64,000 nucleotides of DNA. It comes from Acidimicrobiia bacterium (GTDB lineage: Bacteria; Actinomycetota; Acidimicrobiia; Spongiisociales; UBA11373). The stretch is from contig JAZGDZ010000040.1 in assembly GCA_036478235.1 (NCBI GenBank), positions 12,841 to 76,840 of the forward strand, given 5' to 3'. The translations under genes were made by a program, and so were the position numbers. Below, in pieces: positions 3,938-59,660 of this stretch (position 1 is the stretch's first letter; each line of letters starts with the position of its first letter). The notes under the pieces were generated by a model. The model made no database searches and was not told where the DNA came from. It saw only the letters and a list, made by a program, of their open reading frames with translations.

Positions 3938-3980
3938 CGCTGTGCTCTCTTCGGTGGATCCGGCGGGAGAGTAGTCATCG

Positions 3981-4080
3981 GTCACCAGTCACCAGTCACC
4001 AGTCACCAGTCACCAGTCACCAGTCACCGAAGAGCCATAACGCGTTCTGGCTGGGGACTGGAAGCTGGAGACTGGAGACT
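3981..4080. repeat. Heptanucleotide tandem repeats: (GTCACCA/CAGTCAC)x~7 at 3981-4027, then GACTGGA-like x~4 at 4056-4080. Together they form an imperfect inverted pair
   Basis: Read directly: ggtcaccagtcaccagtcaccagtcaccagtcaccagtcaccagtcacc...ggactggaagctggagactggagact. Sits between the folC stop and the ndk start. Confidence 0.9.
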
Positions 4081-4082
4081 CT

Positions 4083-5363
4083 TCAGAGCCCCAGCGCGGT
4101 CCGCGCCTCCCCGGCCACGTAGAGCGAGCCGGTCACGAGCACAGGGGCCCCCGATTCCCGCGCCGCGGCGACGGCTTCGGCCACCGATCCGTGGGCCTCG
4201 GTCGGCAAGCCGAGGCTCCGTCCTGCCACGGCTGCGACTTCGCCGGCGTCCCGGGCTCGCCCGGACCGGGCCGCCGCCGCATGGACCCGTTCCACCAGGC
4301 CGTCGAGATGTTCGAGCATGCTCTCAACGTCCTTGTCGGCCATGACACCCAATACCAGGACCCACCGCTTGGAAGGGAACTCGAGCCGTAGCGAACCGGC
4401 CAACGCGGCCATCGCATCCGAATTGTGAGCACCATCGATCATCAGCAATGGGTCATCGTCCAGGATCTCCATCCGGCCGGGAGTCGTGATCGTTGCTGCC
4501 GCCTCGCGCACACCGGCCTCATCGAGGGAGCGGCCGAACAGGGCCTCCACCGACGCCACCGCGACCGCAAAGTTGTCTACCTGATGACGGCCCCGGACTC
4601 GCAGTTCGACGTCGCTGTACTCGTCGAAGGCCGACCGCAGATCAAAGGCCCAGCCTCTCGAAGCCCAGCGCAGGTCGGTGACCTCGAACTCGACACCTTG
4701 CCGAAACCACCGGCCGGCGCGTTCTGCGGCTATGTGTTCTGCCCTCTCCAGGGCCTCCGGGGGCAGATCCCCCGTTACCAGCGCAGCGCCCTCGTCGAGT
4801 ATCGCCAGCTTCTCCCCGGCGATTTCTCCCAGCGAGTCTCCGAGGTACTCGGTGTGCTCGAGCCCGATAGTCGTCACGACCGCCACCTCCGAGTCCGCTG
4901 CGTTGGTGGCATCGAGCCTTCCGCCGAGCCCGACCTCGATCACGGCCACATCGACCGACCTCTCGGCGAACCAGGAGTGGGCCATCGCCGCGGTCAGCTC
5001 GAAGTACGTGGCACCATCGCCGGTGCGCTCCGCGAGCATGTCGGCGATGGGGGCGATCTCGGAGATGACCGCGGCGAGCTCGTCGCCTGTCATGACCTGC
5101 AGCCCGTACTCGTATCGTTCTTCGACACGTTGCAGGTGGGGTGATGTAAACGTCCCCGGGGTCAAGCCGTGGCCCGATAGCAATTGGGCCGTCATCCTCA
5201 CCGCACTGGTCTTTCCGTTGGTCCCGGCGACATGGACGATCGGATAGCCGAGTTCGGGGTTCGCCAGCGCGTCGAGCAGCGCGGTGATCCTGTCCAGACC
5301 CGGCTTGAGGCCCCGGCCGATATGGCGATCGAGGAAGGCGATGGCTGCTGTGTAGTCCGTCGT
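4083..5363 (-). CDS. folC: Folylpolyglutamate synthase/dihydrofolate synthase
   Basis: Mur-ligase family. The ORF-track start (5201) is a GTG downstream of the P-loop. Hand translation upstream in frame gives ...YTAAIAFLDRHIGRGLKPGLDRITALLDALANPELGYPIVHVAGTNGKTS, open up to the valS TAG at 5364-5366 with no ATG/GTG/TTG. The 5' boundary is therefore uncertain. Confidence 0.75.
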   Translation of the reverse strand, partial: TTDYTAAIAFLDRHIGRGLKPGLDRITALLDALANPELGYPIVHVAGTNGKTSAVRMTAQLLSGHGLTPGTFTSPHLQRVEERYEYGLQVMTGDELAAVISEIAPIADMLAERTGDGATYFELTAAMAHSWFAERSVDVAVIEVGLGGRLDATNAADSEVAVVTTIGLEHTEYLGDSLGEIAGEKLAILDEGAALVTGDLPPEALERAEHIAAERAGRWFRQGVEFEVTDLRWASRGWAFDLRSAFDEYSDVELRVRGRHQVDNFAVAVASVEALFGRSLDEAGVREAAATITTPGRMEILDDDPLLMIDGAHNSDAMAALAGSLRLEFPSKRWVLVLGVMADKDVESMLEHLDGLVERVHAAAARSGRARDAGEVAAVAGRSLGLPTEAHGSVAEAVAAARESGAPVLVTGSLYVAGEARTALGL

Positions 5364-12047: not shown

Positions 12048-12179
12048 GCTCCGACGCTCGGGATCTGGCTCCGAGACGCCTCCGCACGGTGGTGCCGCCC
12101 CAAGAGGCGGCGCCATATTCTACGACCCGGGTCCCGGCCCAGGCCGCCGAGTCCACGCCTGTCGGCGTGTGCTCTTCGG
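12048..12179. repeat. Copy of the modular intergenic repeat (GGCTCCG...GAGACGCCTCCGCACGG...GCCGCCGAGTCCACGCCTGTCGGCG)
   Basis: Sequence similarity to 8280-8580. Confidence 0.8.
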
Positions 12180-12256
12180 GGTGACCGAGGGGATTTGAAC
12201 CCCCGACATCCGGGACCACAACCCGGCGCTCTAACCTGACTGAGCTACGGCCACCA
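12180..12256 (-). tRNA. tRNA-His (GTG)
   Basis: Reverse complement GGTGGCCGTAGCTCAGTCAGGTTAGAGCGCCGGGTTGTGGTCCCGG...GGTTCAAATCCCCTCGGTCACC. Anticodon loop TTGTGGT. Extra 5' G typical of tRNA-His. Confidence 0.85.
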
Positions 12257-12270
12257 TGACAGAGAGCCTG

Positions 12271-12343
12271 TGCCCCCGGAAGGATTCGAACCTCCGACCA
12301 AGAGCTTAGAAGGCTCCTGCTCTGTCCACTGAGCTACGGGGGC
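12271..12343 (-). tRNA. tRNA-Arg (TCT)
   Basis: Reverse complement GCCCCCGTAGCTCAGTGGACAGAGCAGGAGCCTTCTAAGCTCTTGGTCGGAGGTTCGAATCCTTCCGGGGGCA. Confidence 0.8.
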
Positions 12344-12371
12344 GATAGTCCGACCGTGCCGGTCTCTCTGG

Positions 12372-12442
12372 AGCGGGTGAGGGGAATCGAACCCCCGTAG
12401 CCAGCTTGGAAGGCTGGAGCTCTGCCGTTGAGCTACACCCGC
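12372..12442 (-). tRNA. tRNA-Gly (TCC)
   Basis: Reverse complement GCGGGTGTAGCTCAACGGCAGAGCTCCAGCCTTCCAAGCTGGCTACGGGGGTTCGATTCCCCTCACCCGC. Confidence 0.85.
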
Positions 12443-12521
12443 ACAGCGATCGGGAGATTAGCTCGGCACCTGCACGTACCAACTCAACGCCAGTCTCCAG
12501 CCTCCAATGCGGGGTTGGCCG

Positions 12522-13361
12522 CTATTTGGGTGGTCCGGCGGCGACTCGATCGAAGGCTTCGTCGTAACTGCCTCGTCCCCAGTCGATGAGTTCAACCCAC
12601 CAGGTCGCACCCGCCTGCCTGTAACTCTCGACCTTTTCTCCGTCGTCGGGTTGGGATACGTCGGCCCAGGCAATGTCGTAGGGCTGGTCAGTGTCTCTCT
12701 CGGTCTCGATGGTTCCACGGAAGGAGGCCAGGTCATTGGGGGTCCATTCTTTACCCCAAGGATCAGAAGGACCGATCCAACCATCCCAGCGTGCTGCCCG
12801 GCGGAGGGCTGCGGGGCTGTCTCCGCCAACCCATATCGGAACCCGAGGCTTCTGCACGAGGTTGAGATCGACTGCTACCCCAGCCACCTCGTAATGAGTG
12901 CCTTTGTGGTTGACCTCATCGCCGGACCACAGTCGGGTCACGACATCCAAACTTTCGTCGAGCATTTCGCCGCGAACGCGTGGGTTGCCGGATTCGCCGA
13001 ACACCTCGAACTCGTCGGCAAAGAAACCGATGCCGACTCCCAACGTCATCCTGCCCTCCGAAAGAACATCGAGACTCGACACGGTGGTTGCGAGAGTCTG
13101 CGGTTTGTAGCGAGGAACGATCGCTACGCACGTACCGATCCTGATGGTCTTCGTGGCAGCAGAGACCGCACTCAGAACGACCCAAGGGTCATAGACCGAC
13201 GGAACGCCGTCCCGCCAGAAAAACAAAGAGTCCCACGTGAAAAAGCCGTCCCAGCCGGTTTCCTCAGCGGTCCGCGCTAGGGAAGCAGCGTCGCGTGGAT
13301 GACCAAACCTCTCGGTGTTCGGACAACAAACAGCGAACTTCAATCGCGGTGCGTCAGACAT
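12522..13361 (-). CDS. LLM-class F420-dependent oxidoreductase (luciferase-like monooxygenase family)
   Basis: TIM-barrel LLM motifs (MSDAPRLKFAVCCP..., GIGFFADEFEVFG). The window also carries fbiA/cofE. Start taken at ATG 13361. Confidence 0.75.
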   Translation of the reverse strand: MSDAPRLKFAVCCPNTERFGHPRDAASLARTAEETGWDGFFTWDSLFFWRDGVPSVYDPWVVLSAVSAATKTIRIGTCVAIVPRYKPQTLATTVSSLDVLSEGRMTLGVGIGFFADEFEVFGESGNPRVRGEMLDESLDVVTRLWSGDEVNHKGTHYEVAGVAVDLNLVQKPRVPIWVGGDSPAALRRAARWDGWIGPSDPWGKEWTPNDLASFRGTIETERDTDQPYDIAWADVSQPDDGEKVESYRQAGATWWVELIDWGRGSYDEAFDRVAAGPPK

Positions 13362-13668
13362 CGCCGTGCCAATCTTATCCCCCGCCAGACACCCGATCGG
13401 GCTCGCCATGTGCCAGGAAGACAACCCTTCTCCGCGTCGGGCGTGACCCTTCTCCGCGACAGCCAACGCCTCGCGATGCTGCTCCACTACGAAGAACTAG
13501 CACGAGCCGCCAGATAGGAGGGAAGCAACCCGGAACCCGTAGCGTGACCGACCCGTTCGAGACCGAGCAGGCTCGAACGGGGTCGGACCCCCCAACCAAT
13601 CGAGCTCCGCTCGATTGACTCCCCTCGAGCGGTTCGAGACCGGGTAGGACTCGAACCCGCGAGATGAG

Positions 13669-13742
13669 TCGGGCTGGCCGGATTTGAACCGGCGACCCCC
13701 TGCTCCCAAAGCAGGTGCGCTGCCAAGCTGCGCCACAGCCCG
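13669..13742 (-). tRNA. tRNA-Pro (TGG)
   Basis: Reverse complement CGGGCTGTGGCGCAGCTTGGCAGCGCACCTGCTTTGGGAGCAGGGGGTCGCCGGTTCAAATCCGGCCAGCCCGA. Confidence 0.8.
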
Positions 13743-13764
13743 TTGAACGGCATTGTGCCAGCCA

Positions 13765-13835
13765 CTCGTGCGGGCGGTGGGATTCGAACCTTCTCCGCGC
13801 CACCGGCGAGCCGCGATGCTCGCTCCCTCAAGAGA
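13765..13835 (-). pseudogene. Degenerate duplicate of the tRNA-Leu 3' half (T-arm and acceptor 3' strand) fused to a shared GGAGCGAGCATCGCGG...CGCGGAGAAGG module
   Basis: Reverse complement ...GGGAGCGAGCATCGCGGCTCGCCGGTGGCGCGGAGAAGGTTCGAATCCCACCGCCCGCACGAG. The last 24 nt equal the 3' end of tRNA-Leu at 13937-13960. No 5' half. Confidence 0.6.
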
Positions 13836-13936
13836 GTGAGGACGAGAGTAGCTGGGGATGAGGGGAGTGGGGCGTTGTGGCGAGGGGAGCTTCGAGGCCG
13901 AGCAGGACTCGAAGTTCTCCGACCTCGTATGCGTCC

Positions 13937-14025
13937 TGGTGCGGGCGGTGGGATTCGAACCCACAGCGGGTCTGAGACCCACCGGATCCTAAGTCCGGCG
14001 CCTATGCCGGTTCGGCTACGCCCGC
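13937..14025 (-). tRNA. tRNA-Leu (TAG), class II with a long variable arm, CCA encoded
   Basis: Reverse complement GCGGGCGTAGCCGAACCGGCATAGGCGCCGGACTTAGGATCCGGTGGGTCTCAGACCCGCTGTGGGTTCGAATCCCACCGCCCGCACCA. Confidence 0.85.
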
Positions 14026-14084
14026 GCAGATCCCAGGGTATCGGCAGACGATCTCACCGTTTGCCAAAACGCTATTCTCGCCGC

Positions 14085-14157
14085 GGGTCGCTAGCTCAAC
14101 CTGGCAGAGCAACGGACTCTTAATCCGCAGGTTCGGGGTTCGAATCCCCGGCGACCC
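14085..14157 (+). tRNA. tRNA-Lys (CTT)
   Basis: GGGTCGCTAGCTCAACCTGGCAGAGCAACGGACTCTTAATCCGCAGGTTCGGGGTTCGAATCCCCGGCGACCCA. Confidence 0.8.
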
Positions 14158-14264
14158 ACCGGCTCGCGAACGAATCCCGCGGCACATCGCCGCCGACTGG
14201 CGGCGACGCTTGCTCCCCACCAATCGACGAGAACCTCATCCCCCGCGGCTCGCATCGGCGCCTC

Positions 14265-14331
14265 CGGACGGAGCGAGCATCGCGGATCGCGAGAACGCGG
14301 AGAAGGTTCGAATCCCCGGCGACCCACCGGC
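14265..14331 (+). pseudogene. Duplicate of the tRNA-Lys 3' half preceded by the same GGAGCGAGCATCGCGG...CGCGGAGAAGG module
   Basis: cggagcgagcatcgcggatcgcgagaacgcggagaaggttcgaatccccggcgacccaccggctcgcgaacgaat. About 65 nt are repeated directly from 14130-14198. Confidence 0.6.
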
Positions 14332-14363
14332 TCGCGAACGAATTCCGCGGCACATCGCCGCCG

Positions 14364-14389
14364 ACTGGAGACTGAGGACTGGTGACTCT
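14364..14389. repeat. Heptamer tandem repeat GACTGGA GACTGAG GACTGGT GACTC
   Basis: Direct reading. Adjacent to the USP gene stop. Confidence 0.8.
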
Positions 14390-20905: not shown

Positions 20906-20960
20906 CAGTCTTCCTCTTCCTGCTCTTCTTTTTCTTCTTCTTCCTCCTTTCTTCTTGTCG
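20906..20960. repeat. 55-nt polypyrimidine (CTT/CTC-rich) tract, locally low GC
   Basis: cagtcttcctcttcctgctcttctttttcttcttcttcctcctttcttcttgtcg, with only 3 purines. Confidence 0.9.
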
Positions 20961-28325: not shown

Positions 28326-28333
28326 GGTCTTTG

Positions 28334-28683
28334 TGGAGGTGCGGGGAGTCGAACCCCGGTCCTCTGAGGCTTCGGCGTCGGCATCTCCGAGCGCAGCCGA
28401 TAGCGAGCTTCGGAACGCGGGGCCCTATCGGCGGGTGGTCCTGCGCCCTAGCCGGAGTTGGTCTTGACCCGCCGGTCCCGGCATCCCGGCGGAGGCATCC
28501 CCTATTGCGACGCCCGGACCTGGTGAGAGGGGAACCCTCCAGACGGACGGACTGCGTTGTTAGGCAGCCAGTGCGAAGTTGTCTTCGGCACTTGGTTTGT
28601 TTCCCGGCTCTTTAACGAGGACTCCGGGGACCTCGGCTCGCTTCCGACGCTTCAACCCTCAAAGTCGAAACCATGTCACCCCC
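28334..28683 (-). ncRNA. ssrA: tmRNA (ssrA)
   Basis: Reverse complement starts GGGGGTGACATGGTTTCGACTTTGAGGGTTGAAGCGTCGG and ends GACCGGGGTTCGACTCCCCGCACCTCCA. Tag ORF ...GCCGAAGACAACTTCGCACTGGCTGCCTAA gives (A)EDNFALAA*. Adjacent to smpB. Confidence 0.9.
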
Positions 28684-28751: not shown

Positions 28752-28905
28752 GAAAGTCTCCAGTCTCCAGCCAGCGTCGCTGTCGATCGCCCGCCCCACG
28801 ATCGCCCGCAAAGCGATTGCCCGCCGAGCCCAGCGAGGCGATTGCCGGAGGCTCTCTGGGAGCCGACGCTTAGCAAGTTGCCAGCTGCCAGCTGCCAGTA
28901 GCTTC
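28752..28905. repeat. Cluster of short tandem repeats: (TCTCCAG)x2, CGATCGCCCGC/GCGATTGCCCGCC family x3-4, (GCCAGCT)x3
   Basis: gtctccagtctccag...cgatcgcccgccccacgatcgcccgcaaagcgattgcccgcc...gaggcgattgccgg...ttgccagctgccagctgccagtagc. Confidence 0.85.
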
Positions 28906-32380: not shown

Positions 32381-33488
32381 TCATGCCCCGGCCGCGGCCC
32401 TCCTCCATTGCAGATAGGCGTCGGAGAACCCCTCCAGGCTCCCGTCGAGCACGGCCTGCACGTTCCCCACCTCGAGGTCGGTGCGGAGGTCCTTCACCAT
32501 CTGGTAGGGCTGCAAGACGTATGACCGGATCTGGCGTCCCCAGGCGGCTTCACCCTGCTCCCCGCGTATCTCATCGATCTGCTCGATCTGCTCCTGCCGA
32601 GCCCGTTCCGCCAACCGAGCCGCGAGGAGGGCCATCGCCCGATTGCGATTCTGCAGCTGCGATCGCTCCGCCTGGCAGGCCACGACTATGCCTGTCGGCT
32701 CGTGAGTGATCCTGACGGCCGAATCGGTCACGTTGACGTGCTGGCCTCCCGAGCCCGACGAACGAAAGACATCGATGCGCAGATCGTCCGGATTGATCTC
32801 GACCTCCTCCACCTCCACTTCGGGTATCACGTCCACGCCGGCAAATGAGGTGTGACGCCGCGAGGCGGCATCGAATGGGCTGATTCGCACCAGACGGTGC
32901 ACGCCCCGCTCCGACTCGAGGACCCCGTAGGCGTGGTCACCGCGCACTGTCAACGTTGCCGATCGAATGCCGGCCTCCTCCGCTGGGAGTACCTCGTCGA
33001 CCTCCACCTGGAGCCCACGCCGATCCAGGTAGCGCAAGTACATCCGAAGCATCATCTCCGCCCAATCGGCGGCATCGACTCCCCCGGCGCCGGCGTGAAT
33101 GCTCAGAATCGCGGCTCGATCGTCGTACTCCCCGAAGAAGAGGCTCTCTCTCTCCAGTTCGCCGAGATCGGAGGCCACCGATTCCAGTTCCGCTGCCACA
33201 TCGACGGCGGCGGCCGCATCCTCCTCTTCTGCGGCCAAGTCGAGCAGGACCTCGGCGTCGTCGATGGCGCCCGCCAAACGCTCCACCCGATCGATGATGC
33301 CTTCGTACTTGGCGAGGGTGCGAGTCACCCGGAGCGCCCGCTGCTGGTCGTCCCACAGGTCGGGCGCGGCCGCCTGCTCGTTCAGGCTCTCGAGAGCCTC
33401 GAGCTTGCCCGGCACGTCAAAGGAACCTCCTGGCGTCGTCGAGGCGCGCTCGCAGGGATGAGATTGTGGCTCGGGGGTCCTGGTCCAT
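32381..33488 (-). CDS. prfB: Peptide chain release factor 2, expressed via programmed +1 frameshift (frame 0: 33488..33422, then 33420..32381)
   Basis: Frame-0 reading MDQDPRATISSLRARLDDARRFL then CTT TGA C, preceded by the AGGAGG SD-like element. The downstream frame carries DVPGKLEALES...SGSGGQHVNVTDSAVRITH (the GGQ motif). Confidence 0.9.
33418..33429 (-). promoter_or_regulatory. prfB autoregulatory +1 frameshift site (AGGAGG-TTC-CTT-TGA-C)
   Basis: Minus-strand sequence ...gccaggaggttcctttgacgtg.... A UGA stop in frame 0 after 23 codons. The shifty CUU U motif and the internal SD match the classical prfB site. Confidence 0.85.
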
Positions 33489-33523
33489 GGCGCGGCGGAG
33501 GATAACCAGTTGGCCATTGGCCA

Positions 33524-33596
33524 GGCATCAGGCATTAGGCACCAGTCACCAGTCACCAGAAGGATGACGCGCCCTGACTGGAAACTGGAGACTCGA
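33524..33596. repeat. Heptamer tandem repeats (AGGCATY)x3, (CACCAGT)x3, (GACTGGA-like)x3 in the prfB upstream/secA downstream spacer
   Basis: aggcatcaggcattaggcaccagtcaccagtcaccaga...gactggaaactggagactcga. Confidence 0.85.
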
Positions 33597-33703
33597 AGGG
33601 TGCAGGGGACCCGCCGGGAAAAGACAACACGGCCGCGGTGGGCCAACGGGCCCCACCATGCGGAGGAGGCGGGGTGCAGTGGACCCGCCGGGAAAAGACA
33701 CGG

Positions 33704-42445: not shown

Positions 42446-44233
42446 ATGCCGCTCGACGTTCAGGTGACGCGGGAACGGCAGCGGCGACGCCGGCTGCGCC
42501 GAATCGCATGGCTTCTCGCCCCCTTGGTGACCTGGCTGTGGCTACGCCTGATCTTCGACACCCCGGTCTCGCCCGGATGGCCCGAACTCCCGCCGGAGGC
42601 CATGTTCTGGCTTCCCGGGGTCCTCATCATCCTGCTCCTCGGTGTGGTGCTGATTGCTCCGATGATCGGCAACGGACGGTCTCCGGAGGTCGTGTTCCTC
42701 CCGGAGCAGATCGACGTCTCGTTCGAGGACGTCAAGGGACTCGGGCCGGTGCTGACGGAGGTTCGTCACACGCTCGACGTCTTCTTGAACCATCAGCAGT
42801 TTCGCGATCAGATGGGCGGGCAGCCGCGTCGCGGCATCCTGTTCGAGGGCCCGCCGGGCACGGGCAAGACCCACACCGCCAAGGCGCTTGCCAGGGAAGC
42901 GGGGGTGCCGTTTCTCTTCGTCTCGTCGACGGCATTCCAGAGCATGTGGTACGGCGCCACCGCCCGCAAGATTCGGGCGTACTTCCGCCGCTTGCGCAAG
43001 GTCGCCCGGCAGGAGGGCGGAGCGATTGGGTTCATCGAGGAGTTCGACGCCATTGGAGGACGCCGCGGCAGCATGCAGCGGGCGCTACCGGCGGAGGACC
43101 GGCTGAATCGGGCTGCAATCTCCGAAGGTATCGGTGGAGTGGTCAACGAACTGCTCGTGCAGATGCAGTCGTTCGACGACCCTCCGCGTAGCGTCCGGTT
43201 CGGTAACGCCCTCAAGCGAACGGTAAACAAGTTGCTGCCGTCCCACCGCCACTTCAGGACGAGCAAGCCTCAGTTCGCCAACATCCTGCTCATCGGTGCG
43301 ACCAACCGGGCCGAGGCGCTCGATCCCGCCCTGCTGCGTCCCGGCCGATTCGATCGCGTGTTTCACTTCCCCCTCCCGGCCCGCAAGGAAAGGCGCGAGC
43401 TGATCGACTTCTTCCTGACGACCAAGGCCCACGACGACACGGTCGATGACACAGCCCGCGACGATCTCGCCGCGACCACGATGGGGTACTCGCCGGCTTC
43501 CCTGGAGCGGCTCTTCGACGAGGCACTCCTCTTCGCGTTACGGGAGGACCGCGACAGCCTGGGGGTGACCGATCTGCACAGGGCGCGCCTGGATGTGGAG
43601 ATCGGTCTGGCCGAGCCCACCGAGTACACCGAGGAGGAGCGGGAAAATATCGCCGTCCACGAAGCCGGGCACGCGGTAGTCGCCTATTTGGCGGGCAAGG
43701 GCCGGAAAATGAACTTCCTGTCGATCGTCAAGCGCAAGGATGCCCTCGGGCTGCTGGCTCACAGCGAGACCGAGGAGCGCTACACGAAGCGGCGAAGCGA
43801 GACTCTGGCACTGATGCAAATAGCGCTCGGCGGCATGGTGGCAGAGGAGCTCTTCTTTGGAGAGTCGGGAACCGGCCCGGTGAACGACTTGGCGACGGCG
43901 ACCAACATCGCGGTCGAAATGGTCGGATCCATGGGTCTCGGATCCTCTTTGATCTCCTTCCGAGCAGTCGATCAAGGCATGGTCGGCGGAAATCTCGTCG
44001 CCAAGGTTCTGGCCGACGACAAGGCCCGGGACGCGGTGGACGCGCTGCTACACGAACAGAAGGCAGTGGTTGTCGCCCTGCTGAGGGATAATCGGCATCT
44101 CATCGAGGCGTTGCGCGACGCCCTTGTCGACGGTGACGAACTCGCCGGACGCGAGATCGTCGAAGTCCTCGACGCGGCGCGCGATGGGCAGGAAGCAACG
44201 ATCGATCTGAGGGAGGAAGGTGTTAGGAGTTAG
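42446..44233 (+). CDS. Divergent FtsH-family AAA+ zinc metalloprotease (short periplasmic loop, insertion in the AAA module, M41 HEAGH site)
   Basis: 2 TM, Walker A GPPGTGKT, Walker B IGFIEEFD, SRH IGATNRAEALDPALLRPGRFDR, HEAGHAVVAY. Strong RBS GGAGGAGACAGGAGAAAGGGAGGG. Confidence 0.8.
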   Translation: MPLDVQVTRERQRRRRLRRIAWLLAPLVTWLWLRLIFDTPVSPGWPELPPEAMFWLPGVLIILLLGVVLIAPMIGNGRSPEVVFLPEQIDVSFEDVKGLGPVLTEVRHTLDVFLNHQQFRDQMGGQPRRGILFEGPPGTGKTHTAKALAREAGVPFLFVSSTAFQSMWYGATARKIRAYFRRLRKVARQEGGAIGFIEEFDAIGGRRGSMQRALPAEDRLNRAAISEGIGGVVNELLVQMQSFDDPPRSVRFGNALKRTVNKLLPSHRHFRTSKPQFANILLIGATNRAEALDPALLRPGRFDRVFHFPLPARKERRELIDFFLTTKAHDDTVDDTARDDLAATTMGYSPASLERLFDEALLFALREDRDSLGVTDLHRARLDVEIGLAEPTEYTEEERENIAVHEAGHAVVAYLAGKGRKMNFLSIVKRKDALGLLAHSETEERYTKRRSETLALMQIALGGMVAEELFFGESGTGPVNDLATATNIAVEMVGSMGLGSSLISFRAVDQGMVGGNLVAKVLADDKARDAVDALLHEQKAVVVALLRDNRHLIEALRDALVDGDELAGREIVEVLDAARDGQEATIDLREEGVRS

Positions 44234-44273
44234 GAGTCAGGTTTTCCTAATACCTAATACCTAATATCTAGGT
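44222..44273. terminator. Bidirectional terminator hairpin built from heptamer repeats (GTTAGGA x2-3 / CCTAATA x3) between the convergent ftsH-like gene and ahcY, with both stop codons inside it
   Basis: tgttaggagttaggagtcagg-ttttc-ctaatacctaatacctaatatctagg. The arms are near reverse complements. Locally AT-rich. Confidence 0.7.
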
Positions 44274-48775: not shown

Positions 48776-50914
48776 TCCCACCCGGCGTTTGCGGCGAACG
48801 GCCCACACAGCCAGACCGACGATCGTGCCCAGCGACAGCAGCTTCCCGACGGTCTCAAAAATCCGATCCTTGAACTCGATGACCACATCCGGTTCAGTGG
48901 GCACGACGATCATGAGGGAAGGAGCCGCCCGATAGGGACCGCTCGCCCCTGTGGCCACCCAGTTGGGGAACCAGGAGACCTTCACCAGGTGGGGCACACC
49001 GATCGCCGTCGTCGTGAACGAGATTCGGTGGTCGTCGAGGACCACGTCGGTGACCGCCGTCGCGGCGGAGAGGCGCCGGCGGCTCAGCAGGGCGACGTCG
49101 TCGATGCGCCTCCACGCCTCGGGCCCCGACTCGACGATCCACCTGTCGAGCCCGTTGACGTTGTCGTACCACTCGAGGGCCGCATCGACGAACGACTCTT
49201 CGCCCGCCCACACCACAGGTTCGAACGCCCCGATCTCGACCAGAGGGGTCTCCGGCAACCGGAACACCGTGAAGGGCTTCGAGAGGGCCGCGACGTCGAG
49301 GCCGTACTCGTGAGCGGCTTGTGTGGCGGATTCGGTGAACGAAACGTAGTAAGCGACGTCATACACCGCCAGGTGCTTGACCGCCCGATCGAAGTCCATC
49401 CCCGAGTATGGAAGTCCCGGGATCGGGTTGGAGGGTCGCTGGCTCACCTCCGAAGCATTGACGAAGTGAAACGGTGTTGTGAGCGACGACTCGAAGAGCA
49501 GGCCTTCCATCGACGGATGCCCCTCCGACCAGTACCCGGTCAGCATGAGCGCCATCGGAGTGCCGTATCGGTTGAGATCGCTGTTGGCCTCCCACATGAC
49601 CCTCCCATCGGGGAGCCGGTCGAGCGTCGCCATCAGCCCGGAGTACTCGGACCAGCAGTCGCCCTGGATCTGCTCGCCGTCTTCGCCGCATTCGATGGCG
49701 GCCTTGTCCTCGTACCCGCTGAAGTTCCAGCCCGCCCACTTGGGCGCCTTGTTGATCCCGAGCCCGGCTGCCGTGAGGAAGAAGACCGCGCCGATCGCGG
49801 CTGCCACCCACCTCACCTCGGGGCCACCACGCAACCGCACCGCCATCGACCGCGCCGCCGCACCGACCGCCACCCCGGCGAGAACGAAGGCCGTGAAGTA
49901 CCAGAACGGGAGGAGACGAGCGTTGTATAACTTTCGGAAGTCGAGGTACTCGATGATGAAGTAGCCGGCGACCGGCAGCACCAGCAGGGCGATCGTCGGC
50001 CCGAGCGTGGCCCGCCGCCATATCGCGTAGATGACGCCGGCCGCAGCGAGGACCAGCACCGGCCACAACTCCCGCGGAAAGACGGCCTCGAAGCCCTTCA
50101 CCGGAAACCATTTCATGTCGGTCGTGTACGACAGCGTCGCCAACAGCGGAAGGGCCCAGAAAGCGGAGATGCCGAAACCGACCGCCCAGCCGCCGGCGAG
50201 CGTTGTGGGACCGCGACGCTTGAACAGGAGCGGGAGAGAAACCAGCACGATGACCGCGGTCGTGATCAAGTGACTGAGCGCGGTGAGGGCAAGAATGATG
50301 CCCGTTCCGACCGTAAACCCTCTCCCCTCCCTCAGGTTGCCCATCAGCATCCCCAGGTAGAGGAACGCGAAGGCAAACGACCAGGAGAACGAATACTCCC
50401 CGGCCAGCGTCGACAAGGTATTCCCGCCGAAGATCGAAAACGACTCCATGAAGACGAACGTTCCGCCGGCGACTCCGGCTACCACAGCCACCGATCGGGC
50501 GAATCCCATCCCCCTGGCGAACACGTAGGCGGCGAACGGGAGCGCCACCAGCCCGGCCACCGTCACGAGTTTGAAGGCGACTCCATAGGGCAGGAACACA
50601 TCGAGCAGCACGATGGTGAACGCCGGCAGCGGGAAGTAGAAGTAGAGGACCGGAAAGCCGGCGTACCAGTCGTTGCTCCACCCCAGAAGGCGCCCACCGG
50701 GGAGCAGGCTGTCGCGCACATAGGCCGGGACCAGAACGTGAGCCCCCATGTCGCCTCCGGCCGGAGTGTTGGCGAGGAAGATGCGATCTGGGCGCATGTA
50801 CCCGAATGCCATCGCCGCGCCGAGCGCCAGGATCGCAGGCACGACGAACCTCAGCCACGGCCTGGTCGAGTCGGGCCGGGTCAGACGCGGCGGAGCCTGA
50901 GTCGAGGCGGTCAC
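48761..50914 (-). CDS. Large polytopic membrane protein (717 aa), candidate GT-C fold glycosyltransferase using the lipid-linked sugar made by the adjacent GT2
   Basis: About 11 N-terminal TM helices, then a ~330-aa extracytoplasmic domain, then a C-terminal TM anchor. Convergent with the Ppm1-like GT2. No recognisable named family at sequence level. Confidence 0.5.
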   Translation of the reverse strand: MTASTQAPPRLTRPDSTRPWLRFVVPAILALGAAMAFGYMRPDRIFLANTPAGGDMGAHVLVPAYVRDSLLPGGRLLGWSNDWYAGFPVLYFYFPLPAFTIVLLDVFLPYGVAFKLVTVAGLVALPFAAYVFARGMGFARSVAVVAGVAGGTFVFMESFSIFGGNTLSTLAGEYSFSWSFAFAFLYLGMLMGNLREGRGFTVGTGIILALTALSHLITTAVIVLVSLPLLFKRRGPTTLAGGWAVGFGISAFWALPLLATLSYTTDMKWFPVKGFEAVFPRELWPVLVLAAAGVIYAIWRRATLGPTIALLVLPVAGYFIIEYLDFRKLYNARLLPFWYFTAFVLAGVAVGAAARSMAVRLRGGPEVRWVAAAIGAVFFLTAAGLGINKAPKWAGWNFSGYEDKAAIECGEDGEQIQGDCWSEYSGLMATLDRLPDGRVMWEANSDLNRYGTPMALMLTGYWSEGHPSMEGLLFESSLTTPFHFVNASEVSQRPSNPIPGLPYSGMDFDRAVKHLAVYDVAYYVSFTESATQAAHEYGLDVAALSKPFTVFRLPETPLVEIGAFEPVVWAGEESFVDAALEWYDNVNGLDRWIVESGPEAWRRIDDVALLSRRRLSAATAVTDVVLDDHRISFTTTAIGVPHLVKVSWFPNWVATGASGPYRAAPSLMIVVPTEPDVVIEFKDRIFETVGKLLSLGTIVGLAVWAVRRKRRVGLEVA

Positions 50915-58230: not shown

Positions 58231-58305
58231 GGCAACTAAATTCCCGGCCGTGACGCCATTAGCCGTTAGGCGCTAACCATTAGCACTTGCAGCTTGCCTT
58301 CGAGA
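58231..58305. repeat. Heptamer-based repeats and a near-palindrome (CATTAGC/CGTTAGG/CGCTAAC/CATTAGC, ACTTGCA/GCTTGCC) in the fpg upstream region
   Basis: ggcaactaaattcccggccgtgacgccattagccgttaggcgctaaccattagcacttgcagcttgcc. Confidence 0.75.
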
Positions 58306-59444: not shown

Positions 59445-59660
59445 CTGGCCGTTGGCCGTTGGCGTCCGGCGATCCTCGCTTCGCTCGGGGCCACCGAAAC
59501 GGGCGATCCGAGCTTCGCTCGGAGCGATCCCCCGGCGAGCACAGCGAGGCGATTGCACGTATGCGATCGCCCGCCGAGCGCAGCGAGCCGATTGCACGTA
59601 TTCGATCGCCCGGCGAGCACAGCGAACCGATTGCCACGGCTCTTGGCTACTGGCTACTGG
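59445..59660. repeat. Repeat block: (GGCCGTT)x2, CGAGCGAAGCGAGG/TCGCTTCGCTCGG motifs, 2.5 tandem ~41-bp units (CGAGCRCAGCGARSCGATTGCACGTATKCGATCGCCCG), (GGCTACT)x2
   Basis: Direct reading. The (GGCTACT)2 repeat overlaps and supplies the stop of the galE-like gene (…SSQ*). Confidence 0.85.

Follow-up and report, generated by a model that had tools for sequence, protein, structure and literature searches.

Strain-variable heptanucleotide repeat arrays in intergenic spacers of an uncultured Acidimicrobiia actinobacterium

Heptamer repeat arrays in an uncultured Acidimicrobiia actinobacterium are confirmed here to be real and variable between strains. In the stretch of DNA that we analysed (64,000 nucleotides, the window), and at the corresponding sites of related strains, the arrays exceed chance expectation, lie between genes, change in 7-nt steps, replace their repeat unit and keep their position. 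In three of the five spacers that hold them, two arrays face each other and are predicted to form stable hairpins. The explanation we favour, at roughly even confidence, is that they are slippage-generated heptanucleotide SSRs that would act as RNA hairpins at gene ends.

Results

Heptanucleotide arrays in the window

An exact-run scan of the window identified nine period-7 arrays (at least two copies plus 2 nt) versus 0.63 ± 0.78 expected from 100 dinucleotide-preserving shuffles, whose maximum was three. The same scan of the window returned no exact array of period 8 or of period 10, and exact arrays of periods 4–5 were at or below the shuffle expectation. All nine heptamer arrays are intergenic, as had been claimed from the sequence alone, and are spread over five spacers of a window that is ~80% coding; five of the window arrays touch a stop codon or lie no more than 5 nt from one. 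TRF and exact-run scans both describe head-to-tail repeats of a perfect or near-perfect unit within the 5–11 nt range of LSSRs, and the excess over compositional expectation (9 versus 0.63) is likewise a property of that class.

A CCAGT/ACTGG core recurs in five of the nine arrays. The unit ACTGGTG is found at both 3.98 and 33.5 kb, and ACTGGCT at 59.6 kb as well as in the related strain L002; other window arrays are built on the unrelated units GTTAGGA, CCTAATA, TGGCCGT and CAGGCAT. A second, non-heptamer repeat family lies between heptamer arrays at two window loci, one copy being at 28784–28850 between the two arrays of the smpB-ssrA spacer, and also inside the folC-ndk element of strain L004. 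Rfam covariance models at gathering score matched six tRNAs and the tmRNA in the window and no array, ruling out a known RNA family.

The coordinates of the original prediction were largely reproduced (Table 1). The arrays that it had placed at 3981–4080 were called by TRF at 3973–4028 (period 7, 8.0 copies, 93% matches, unit AGTCACC) and 4051–4080 (period 7, 4.3 copies, unit CTGGAGA), and others that it had listed lay within a few bases of where it had put them (28755–28770, 28879–28898, 33522–33545, 33540–33559, 33574–33596, 44218–44241, 44246–44270, 59446–59463 and 59644–59660). Two listed loci fared poorly, since both are degenerate, absent from the TRF calls and fold no better than shuffles: 14364–14389 (z −0.57), a 3.7-copy run that appears to have arisen from a GACTGG motif within one copy of a duplicated sequence, and 58251–58290 (z +0.38). 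The high-GC actinobacterial host that had been proposed was borne out by a GC content of 63–71% and by a 100%-identical AhcY annotated as Acidimicrobiia bacterium MAG. The HIP1 palindrome is not enriched in the window (6 versus 7.7 expected) and the protein homologues are from Acidimicrobiia, on which grounds a cyanobacterial origin was rejected.

Table 1. Repeat arrays and associated features in the window, with strand where one is assigned.
Feature	Position	Strand	Description
Array B, folC-ndk	3973–4028	minus	(ACTGGTG)x7–8 on the transcribed (minus) strand, near-perfect; TRF
Loop between arrays A and B	4029–4050	minus	Non-repetitive, CCAGAACGCGTTATGGCTCTTC
Array A, folC-ndk	4051–4080	minus	Degenerate AGTCTCC AGTCTCC AGCTTCC AGTCCCC (minus strand); pairs with array B
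Degenerate nascent array	14364–14389	plus	GACTGGA GACTGAG GACTGGT GACTC; within second copy of duplicated tRNA-Lys 3' end
smpB-ssrA spacer array	28755–28770	minus	(AGTCTCC)x2.3; 72 nt from tmRNA 5' end
Second smpB-ssrA spacer array	28879–28898	minus	(TGCCAGC)x2.9; direct, not inverted, relative to 28755–28770
Double array, secA-prfB spacer	33522–33559	minus	(CAGGCAT)x3.4 abutting (CACCAGT)x2.9, plus-strand reading; second array is (ACTGGTG)3 on the transcribed strand
Degenerate partner array	33574–33596	minus	AGTCTCC AGTTTCC AGTCAG on the minus strand; downstream of secA, pairs with 33540–33559
Hairpin arm 1 between convergent ftsH-like and ahcY	44218–44241		(GTTAGGA)x3.4; includes ftsH-like stop codon 44231–44233
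Hairpin arm 2, ftsH-like/ahcY	44246–44270		(CCTAATA)x3.6; includes ahcY stop codon 44268–44270
Period-7 stretch, cofE-fpg spacer	58251–58290	plus	CCATTAG-type, very degenerate, doubtful member
Array 3' of small ORF	59446–59463		(TGGCCGT)x2.6; begins 5 nt past the ORF's stop codon
Array at epimerase gene end	59644–59660		(TGGCTAC)x2.4 = ACTGGCT unit; overlaps epimerase stop codon 59647–59649

Facing arrays and their predicted hairpins

Two arrays face each other at folC-ndk, at secA-prfB and between ftsH-like and ahcY, and their predicted folds consist of 6-bp helices broken by a single mismatch in each 7 nt (z −1.9 to −4.3). The near-reverse-complement hairpins that had been described between genes were recovered at 3973–4080, 33540–33596 and 44218–44270 (z −3.4, −1.9 and −3.3), but not at 28.7 and 59.5 kb, where the arrays have direct orientation around a different repeat. 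At folC-ndk, array A begins 2 nt past the folC stop codon (4083–4085) and array B stops 35 nt before the ATG of ndk (3937), the ndk start and length agreeing with the gene called in strain L001. The two arrays pair in the predicted RNA fold at −52.8 kcal/mol (z −3.37; none of 200 shuffles reached this stability), and z for this hairpin in three strains is −3.4, −4.0 and −4.3, again with none of 200 shuffles as stable. The loop has no second copy in the window with up to three mismatches allowed, and it is recognisably conserved in L005, a 75%-identity relative. The secA-prfB double array lies ~52 nt upstream of the prfB ATG (33488), and its fold with the partner array reaches −29.6 kcal/mol (z −1.92), with values of −25.5 on the sense and −20.7 on the antisense strand; the ftsH-like/ahcY pair folds at −25.8 kcal/mol (z −3.33; a stability matched by none of 200 shuffles). 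The fold of the smpB-ssrA spacer is not significant (z −1.7), and the two direct arrays at 59.5 kb gave no significant structure; the epimerase-end unit of the latter locus, ACTGGCT, is also the folC-ndk unit of strains L002 and L003.

The sense-strand MFE was equal or better in all five sense/antisense comparisons, and at folC-ndk the arm pair native to each of three lineages outperformed all swapped pairs on the sense, not the antisense, strand; the same comparison of native and swapped arms at the ahcY locus was equivocal. In L002 and L003, pairing of the degenerate arm is preserved via G.U wobbles that are workable on the sense RNA strand only. In L243, the MFE fold leaves the two arms unpaired. 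Arm lengths are often unequal (7 versus 4, 9 versus 4 and 10 versus 3 units), so that pairing can do without much of the array. Since direct reading of the sequences revealed no U-run after any hairpin, none is a canonical intrinsic terminator. We also rejected the periodic mismatch as a designed feature, because roughly half of the inverted pairs found in other phyla show perfect complementarity; the mismatch is better read as a by-product of arms homogenised independently.

Variation between strains

The folC-ndk array reads (ACTGGTG)7, (ACTGGCT)9, (ACTGGCT)4 or (ACTGGCG) in at least four copies in related strains, so that the unit differs between strains, is uniform inside each array and always retains the ACTGG core, while copy number shifts in 7-nt steps. 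VNTR-like variability, one of the checks that the original prediction proposed, is clearest between L002 and L003, whose folC-ndk spacers are identical except for nine versus four copies of ACTGGCT (35 nt, five units), a polymorphism in whole units of the kind that characterises LSSRs. Between strains the unit has changed in every copy with the flanking genes 98–100% identical. L244 carries six copies of an octamer variant, CTCCCTAA, an amplification that fits slippage acting on whatever unit exists.

Orthologous ftsH-like/ahcY arrays with other units occur in L243, L244 and L245; L245, a 90% relative, also has (CAGTAAC)5 after the secA stop codon, in the same place as the window array at 33574–33596, and arrays are retained at the same spacers in the relative with 90% AhcY identity. 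Position and pair type are conserved while length and sequence vary at folC-ndk (five assemblies), in the ahcY spacer (four) and at the secA 3' end (two). Relatives at 63% FolC identity have a 43-nt folC-ndk spacer from which the element is absent, and no arrays in 35 kb.

Short-read contigs often stop inside arrays (L004 and L005), and L220 ends in a run of N. The frequency of such breaks would suit an assembly or synthetic origin of the arrays, a possibility that we consider negligible and rejected because at least six independent assemblies contain orthologous arrays, assembled through and with unique flanks on both sides. Orthologous sites with heptamer arrays, the independent check against artefacts, were found in GCA_044232415.1, GCA_044343095.1, two Logan read-set assemblies, ERZ26800495 and GCA_012974985.1.

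Discussion

Origin and possible role of the arrays

We propose that strand slippage in Acidimicrobiia intergenic spacers creates the arrays and alters their length. Where two near-complementary arrays face each other, the transcript, or single-stranded DNA, would be able to fold into a long hairpin. Contraction and re-expansion would homogenise each arm and pass a point change in the founding unit to all copies, which would explain the different yet internally uniform units of close strains. The hairpins are tolerated, and probably kept, we infer, because they are situated at gene ends. If the spacers are transcribed and fold in vivo, as the predicted stabilities suggest, the hairpin may serve the mRNA as a 3'-end or intercistronic stem-loop that lacks a U-tract, and any effect on expression would come from its being a 3'-exonuclease barrier, a partial terminator or an RNase III site.

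It is possible, if doubtful, that the arrays are functionless mutational by-products, with slippage-prone heptamers gathering in intergenic DNA where selection is weak and the matching of arms arising from template switching in quasi-palindromes instead of selection for a hairpin. The very unequal arms with their unpaired surplus copies, the equally ready expansion of the 8-mer variant in L244, the wholly unpaired arrays at 28.7 and 59.5 kb, the unpaired arms in the MFE fold of L243 and the dispensability of the element in relatives at 63% FolC identity are all in line with this, as is Mrazek's polymerase-footprint slippage hypothesis as cited in PMC4692102 and PMC4679880. Against such an origin speak the strong association of arrays with stop codons, the retention of arrays in the same three spacers across relatives of 75–90% protein identity despite complete unit turnover, and the pairing of the degenerate L002/L003 arm through sense-only G.U wobbles. 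We think it unlikely that the arrays are contingency or "rheostat" loci, whose copy number upstream of ndk, prfB or ssrA would tune the downstream gene. The placement of arrays 35–52 nt before the start codons of ndk and prfB and the strain copy numbers of 4, 7 or 9 would be consistent with such tuning, for which H. influenzae hmw1A, where the number of heptamer SSR units and a hairpin processed by RNase III control expression, is the precedent, but the downstream genes are housekeeping rather than surface or virulence genes, equivalent arrays lie between convergent genes with no downstream gene, and strains differ in unit sequence and not in number alone. Similarly improbable is that the paired arrays are "heptad hairpins", a distinct and actively maintained structured class whose arms would be matched by a structure-templated or transcription/RNase III-dependent process (hinted at for hmw1A), and whose CCAGT/ACTGG units in distant taxa (Acidimicrobiia, Streptomyces, Gemmataceae, Acidobacteriota, Poribacteria and, as STRR1, cyanobacteria) would have been spread by a common sequence-specific factor or by horizontal transfer.

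Explanations based on mobility or on protein binding are less probable again. Units shared across loci (ACTGGTG and ACTGGCT) and with distant phyla, together with the second repeat family that separates arrays at two loci of the window and occurs within the L004 folC-ndk element, could suggest that a small MITE-like mobile element, of which the arrays would be the ends, has inserted in several spacers and spreads within and between genomes. This is very unlikely: the folC-ndk interior is unique in the window, interiors are unrelated between loci, orthologous elements swap their unit in situ with the flanks fixed, no transposase was found near any array among the proteins scanned, and no target-site duplication was seen flanking the element in the strain alignment. 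A MITE was rejected on the unique loop and the lack of flanking duplication. We give still less weight to the arrays being bound by a sequence-specific DNA- or RNA-binding protein, such as a SARP-type regulator or an S1-, Csp- or CsrA-type RNA binder. The CCAGT/ACTGG core of five of the nine window arrays and all folC-ndk variants would agree with this, and an RNA binder has been proposed in print for the Beggiatoaceae TAACTGA repeats, but the same genome also contains the unrelated units GTTAGGA, CCTAATA, TGGCCGT and CAGGCAT. In an unselected viral collection, heptamer-array stretches numbered 112 for ACTGG and 82, 64, 19 and 18 for AGTGC, GATGC, CGTAG and GACGT, control cores of the same base composition; since these numbers are comparable, ACTGG enrichment is modest at best and a universal ACTGG-specific factor was rejected. 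SARP sites are heptamers in an 11-nt register at promoters, and the spacing and position of the window arrays, contiguous 7-nt tandems at gene 3' ends, are wrong for them. Two further candidates were discarded: stop codons in three frames, because (GGTGACT)n has TGA in each sense frame whereas (ACTGGCT)n of L002 has no sense-strand stop, and G-quadruplexes, because the units lack G3 tracts.

Slippage-generated SSRs inferred to act as hairpins at gene ends do not amount to a new kind of system. What the spacers provide is a natural series, at fixed sites, of array birth, 7-nt expansion and unit swapping with the arms staying roughly complementary, and hence material for the old question of what makes 7-nt units predominate among the long SSRs of bacteria, and of whether inverted pairs have any function. 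In practical terms, the arrays can be used as strain-typing (VNTR) markers in metagenomes and account for the breaking of contigs when such genomes are assembled from short reads.

Comparison with known repeats

REP/REPIN sequences are 20–40-nt conserved palindromic units spread by the RAYT (IS200/IS605-like) transposase. The window arrays resemble them in being intergenic, hairpin-forming and often at gene 3' ends within operons, where an mRNA-stabilising role has been proposed for REPs; they differ in having no conserved unit longer than 7 nt and interiors that are unique and unrelated between loci. The description of the arrays as STRR-like intergenic heptamers held, and the cyanobacterial STRRs, including GGGGA(C/T)T of Nostoc, are likewise intergenic heptamer tandem arrays. 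The STRR1–3 unit sequences are said to go back to Mazel et al. in 1990, STRR1 reportedly being CCCCAGT (= GGGGACT). The window units (CACCAGT, CTCCAGT, AGCCAGT and others) are at best one mismatch from STRR1; Nostoc GGGGACT (= ACTGGGG; CCCCAGT on the other strand) is one base from CACCAGT and CTCCAGT. The host also differs from the heterocystous cyanobacteria of canonical STRRs, given the Acidimicrobiia MAG annotation and the unenriched HIP1, and inverted pairs are prominent here, whereas Nostoc has only a few (Rehm et al., PMC4692102).

The TAACTGA direct repeats of marine Beggiatoaceae, some Cyanobacteria and Bacteroidetes (MacGregor 2015; PMC4679880) are also intergenic heptamer tandems, of 2–6 copies, in unrelated phyla and with a proposed role at the RNA level. 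They consist of one unit, arranged in 169 direct sets and a single indirect one, and overlie the ribosome-binding site immediately before start codons, whereas the units here are diverse, often in inverted pairs and tend to abut stop codons. The only experimentally dissected heptamer-array hairpin found in our literature search is that of the hmw1A 5'-UTR SSR, (ATCTTTC)n, of H. influenzae, which is transcribed and whose hairpin is cleaved by RNase III (PMC12721329). It shares with the predicted folds here a heptameric SSR as one arm of a long hairpin and a copy number that varies among isolates; its partner arm is a G-rich non-repeat, its gene encodes a phase-variable adhesin in a host-adapted pathogen, and its RNase III processing has been demonstrated, whereas the window hairpins are known from in-silico folding.

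A further counterpart is found in Xanthomonas, a high-GC genome with intergenic, inverted-pair, strain-variable arrays of the unit GGGAATC (Rehm et al. 2015; PMC4692102). There, 89–93% of the repeats are intergenic and close to the end of the neighbouring ORF, 70–75 cases of two convergent (inverted) arrays are able to form stem-loops, the inverted pairs are mostly transcribed, and relatives keep the position and the type (single or inverted pair) while differing in length and sequence. The inverted-pair layout at three window loci, and its conservation in position and type with varying length and sequence, follow this pattern. In contrast, several different units coexist in this one genome, and the G-quadruplex/i-motif property studied for the G-rich Xanthomonas unit is inapplicable to window units without a G3 tract.

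The premise that heptamer arrays are a cyanobacterial speciality, unusual in Actinobacteria, proved mistaken. According to the account by MacGregor 2015 (PMC4679880) of the survey of Mrazek et al. 2007, heptanucleotides are the most abundant class of long SSRs in most genomes, and three Actinobacteria are among the ten genomes richest in 5–11 nt repeats; the text of Huang and Mrazek 2014 contains no particular information on heptamers of Actinobacteria. The Xanthomonas arrays (PMC4692102) bear on the same point, and identical units turned up in two Streptomyces, five Acidimicrobiia-type MAGs and many other phyla when we scanned species-representative genomes. The arrays described here are thus a further example of heptamer repeats already documented in many bacterial phyla, including Actinobacteria. 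As summarised in PMC4679880 and PMC4692102, the prokaryotic LSSRs of Mrazek, Guo and Shah 2007 are near-perfect 7-nt tandems beyond chance, mostly intergenic, variable in length, sporadic in phylogenetic spread (Actinobacteria included) and ascribed to polymerase slippage; on that description the window arrays show no essential difference from LSSRs and belong to the class.

Heptamer Arrays in the Window and Their Host

Exact tandem runs with a minimum of two copies and two further bases were counted for each period from 4 to 12 and compared with 100 dinucleotide-preserving shuffles. The window holds nine such arrays of period 7, against 0.63 +/- 0.78 (maximum 3) in the shuffles, and none of period 8 or of period 10; the slight rise in periods 6 and 9 is that expected from codon repeats. 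All nine are confined to five intergenic spacers of a window that is roughly 80% coding, and for five of them a stop codon is in contact with the array or no more than 5 nt away. Together with the Tandem Repeats Finder (TRF) calls, this excess confirms that heptamer arrays are present as the original prediction had described, and described well; those at 14364-14389 and 58251-58290 are weak, being degenerate and having no TRF call.

Features of the window and of related loci (window coordinates unless a locus is named)
Feature	Position	Strand	Description
folC-ndk repeat region	3973-4080	plus	(CAGTCAC)n, then unique 22 nt, then GGACTGGAAGCTGGAGACTGGAGACT
Array B	3973-4028	minus	(GGTGACT)x7-8; TRF period 7, 8.0 copies, 93% matches
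Array A	4051-4080	minus	AGTCTCC AGTCTCC AGCTTCC AGTCCCC; TRF period 7, 4.3 copies
Further period-7 arrays (TRF)	starting at 28755, 28879, 33522, 33540, 44218, 44246, 59446, 59644
Six-tRNA cluster	12178-14160		His, Arg, Gly, Pro, Leu, Lys
tRNA-Lys 3' duplication	14137-14200 and 14305-14368		Near-identical 64 nt (T-arm, acceptor, downstream), 168 nt apart
Low-complexity repeat	20909-20956		Imperfect, TCT/TCC-rich, period 3/12, 16 period-3 copies; overlaps long-ORF end; probably coding tract
tmRNA	28331-28683	minus	Downstream of smpB; short tag peptide AEDNFALAA
Second repeat family	28784-28850; 59468-59640; L004 2373-2402		GCGATCGCCCGSCGAGC-NCA-GCGAGSCGATTGC
39-nt unit x3	59524-59640		Tandem, second family
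34-nt pair	59468-59525		Related to second family; hairpin CCGAGC-TTC-GCTCGG
prfB frameshift site	33416-33431	minus	AGGAGG-TTC-CTT-TGA-C, classical programmed +1; prfB (ATG 33488) downstream of secA
Long ORF	32381-33646		+1 frame relative to prfB ATG
27-nt direct repeat x2	33600-33626 and 33674-33700		GTGCAGKGGACCCGCCGGGAAAAGACA; 74 nt apart, between secA stop and heptamer hairpin
Octamer expansion	L244 1618-1665		ahcY spacer
(CGATTGC)3	L006 265-285		Sole heptamer array of this relative

Three of the spacers carry inverted pairs. On the transcribed (minus) strand the folC-ndk element runs from the folC stop TGA through 2 nt, array A, the 22-nt loop, array B and 35 nt to the ndk ATG, a layout repeated in the secA-prfB spacer by a degenerate CCAGT-type arm, a loop and a perfect (ACTGGTG)3 arm. 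The third pair, (GTTAGGA)3-TTTT-(CCTAATA)3.6, has units unrelated to those of the other two, and is located where the convergent ftsH-like and ahcY genes meet, taking in both stop codons. The smpB-ssrA and small ORF/epimerase spacers each have two directly oriented arrays flanking a longer, different repeat (GCGATCGCCCGSCGAGC...CGATTGC). That second family was found only between heptamer arrays, in the relative L004 inside the folC-ndk element, and its CGATTGC unit recurs in L006. Both families occupy the smpB-ssrA spacer, which is unusually long at about 360 nt.

Assignment to an actinobacterial host was correct, as indicated by a protein 100% identical to the window's AhcY and annotated 'MAG: adenosylhomocysteinase [Acidimicrobiia bacterium]', and by more remote FolC and AhcY homologs named Acidimicrobiia or Actinobacteria. 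GC is 63-71%, the gene order includes mreD-mreC-mreB-ndk-folC-valS-clpX, and the window shows no enrichment of the cyanobacterial HIP1 palindrome (6 observed versus 7.7 expected). Identical or near-identical flanking proteins were found in GCA_044345325.1, GCA_044232415.1, GCA_044343095.1, two Logan read-set assemblies, ERZ26800495 and GCA_012974985.1. Every one of these independent assemblies has heptamer arrays at orthologous positions, so the arrays are not the assembly artefacts that their absence would have indicated. Short-read contigs tend to stop within arrays (L004, L005; L220, from an Acidimicrobiia genome, terminates in an N run). Read as its reverse complement, JAZHCF011116319.1 1-50830 equals the window's positions 1-50830, and the remainder lies on another contig of that assembly, JAZHCF010615912.1, so the window derives from a record of greater contiguity; no obvious repeat was seen at the junction near 50830.

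Variation Between Strains

The most informative result of our analyses is the comparison of the folC-ndk and ahcY spacers between strains. Array position is kept across substantial divergence, copy number shifts by whole units, and all copies of a unit may differ between strains with nearly identical flanking genes.

Arrays at two orthologous spacers in related strains
Spacer	Locus	Relation to window	Arrays
folC-ndk	window / L001	identical sequence	B (ACTGGTG)7
folC-ndk	L002	MreB identical	B (ACTGGCT)9; arm A replaced too
folC-ndk	L003	FolC 98%	B (ACTGGCT)4
folC-ndk	L004	FolC 97%	B not seen; longer arm A, second repeat family, contig end
folC-ndk	L005	FolC 75%	B (ACTGGCG), at least 4; loop recognizably homologous
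folC-ndk	L006	FolC 67%	B none
folC-ndk	L239 / L240	FolC 63%	B none; spacer just 43 nt
ahcY/ftsH-like	window		arm 1 (TATTAGG)3; arm 2 (TAACTCC)3
ahcY/ftsH-like	L243	AhcY ~100%	arm 1 (CGTTAGT)5; arm 2 ACTAATC / GCTAATA ...
ahcY/ftsH-like	L244	AhcY 98%	arm 1 TATTAGG-type; arm 2 (CTCCTAA)3, then (CTCCCTAA)6
ahcY/ftsH-like	L245	AhcY 90%	arm 1 GCATTAGG, CATTAGG; arm 2 (CCTAACT)4+

The sole difference between the L002 and L003 folC-ndk spacers is 35 nt of copy number (nine versus four copies). In L244, addition of a C has turned CTCCTAA into an octamer that stands at six copies, which indicates that amplification acts on any unit present and is not bound strictly to 7 nt. L245 also has (CAGTAAC)5 directly after secA, the site orthologous to the window's 33.5-kb locus.

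Predicted Hairpins and Pairing of the Arms

None of 200 shuffles was as stable as the predicted sense RNA of the folC-ndk element in the window (MFE -52.8 kcal/mol, z -3.4), L002 (-52.2 kcal/mol, z -4.0) or L003 (-38.7 kcal/mol, z -4.3), nor as that of the 44.2-kb pair (-25.8 kcal/mol, z -3.3). At 33.5 kb the predicted sense RNA had -29.6 kcal/mol (z -1.9, 5/200 shuffles as stable), and at 14364-14389 and 58251-58290 folding was no better than in shuffles. Structure was not significant at the composite loci of 28.7 kb (z -1.7) and 59.5 kb (z -2.3). Three sequence families share a predicted fold of 6-bp helices with one mismatch at each seventh nucleotide: CCAGUC/GACUGG with U.U in the window's folC-ndk element, C-Y-R-GUA/UACUGG with C.C in L002 and L003, and GUUAGG/CCUAAU with A.A at 44.2 kb. 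No U-run follows any of the hairpins, and none has an Rfam match.

At folC-ndk, the native duplex of arm A with arm B was the best on the sense strand in each of three independent lineages: -41.2 kcal/mol versus -32.3 and -37.5 when swapped for the window, -37.8 versus -35.6 and -29.1 for L002, and -31.5 versus -29.7 and -23.7 for L005. This advantage was absent on the antisense strand of the same lineages. Sense-strand MFE was equal or better in five of five comparisons, clearly so in three, and G.U wobbles carry the pairing of the degenerate arm in L002 and L003. From this small sample, the folding models favor a constraint on the arms at the RNA level. The ahcY locus is equivocal because its arm lengths differ greatly, and the L243 arms do not pair at all in the MFE structure. 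Selection for arm pairing is suggested rather than shown; template switching in quasi-palindromes could match arms without it.

Discussion

A likely array birth event is seen at 14364-14389. The first copy of the tRNA-Lys 3' duplication has a plain hairpin, GCCGCC-GACT-GGCGGC, and the second has GACTGGA-GACTGAG-GACTGGT-GACTC in the same spot. The duplication, with its nascent array in the second copy, resembles the att-site type left by integration or excision. The most likely mechanism for the birth, growth and homogenization of arrays is slippage; an array that repeatedly shrank and regrew from a founder unit bearing a mutation would carry the changed unit in every copy. Paired arrays would then yield transcript hairpins at gene ends, plausibly serving, without a U-run, as stem-loops at 3' ends or between cistrons. 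The main rival to such a role, less likely but far from negligible, is that the arrays have no function whatever.

MacGregor (2015; PMC4679880) summarizes Mrazek et al. (2007): in most genomes heptanucleotides formed the largest class of long simple sequence repeats, and three Actinobacteria figured among the ten genomes with the most 5-11 nt repeats. Polymerase-footprint slippage was proposed to explain the 7-nt preference. Our single scan of species-representative genomes with (ACTGGHN)3ACTGG, in which H leaves out the Nostoc unit, found at least 120 stretches versus about 0.5 by chance. Among the matches listed (120 loci, 853 kb) there were 336 period-7 and 14 period-8 arrays and 19 adjacent inverted pairs, such as (TCCAGTC)5...GACTGGC GACTGGA in a Gemmataceae MAG (L208); complementarity is perfect in about half of these pairs, and the periodic mismatch is accordingly no general design feature. 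The matches listed included several cyanobacterial genomes, Acidobacteriota, Planctomycetota, Chloroflexota, Bacteroidota, Desulfobacterales, Poribacteria, Verrucomicrobiota, Omnitrophota and Armatimonadota, and, among Actinobacteria, two Streptomyces, four Acidimicrobiia MAGs and one 'Candidatus Spongiisociaceae' MAG. The actinobacterial matches listed carry the window's units: (CCAGTAG)8 in Streptomyces acidicola (L119), (ACTGGTG)4 in Streptomyces sp. (L219) and, immediately 3' of a stop codon, in Ca. Spongiisociaceae (L212), and (AGTCACC)9 (L220) and a complete inverted pair (L193) in Acidimicrobiia. The ACTGG core is favored at most modestly, as a viral collection held 112 stretches of it versus 82, 64, 19 and 18 for four control cores of the same composition.

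The arrays are genuine and hypervariable, and they are neither random nor artefactual. As heptanucleotide long simple sequence repeats they belong to a kind known from many phyla, Actinobacteria among them, and the proposal that they are unusual in this host does not hold; for their inverted-pair arrangement there is a published precedent in Xanthomonas. In Haemophilus influenzae hmw1A, the transcribed (ATCTTTC)n supplies one of the arms of a hairpin in the 5' UTR that RNase III cleaves and on which both expression and repeat-number change depend (PMC12721329). The Nostoc unit GGGGA(C/T)T (Rehm et al. 2015, PMC4692102) equals ACTGGGG, one base off the window's ACTGGTG. GGGAATC arrays of Xanthomonas are 89-93% intergenic and closer to the end of the 5' neighboring ORF, with two arrays convergently oriented in 70-75 cases, gene context kept in 83% between two species, the single or pair type preserved, and 'extensive length and sequence variation' in mostly transcribed repeats (Rehm et al. 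2015, PMC4692102). The window arrays are alike in every structural respect but G-richness.
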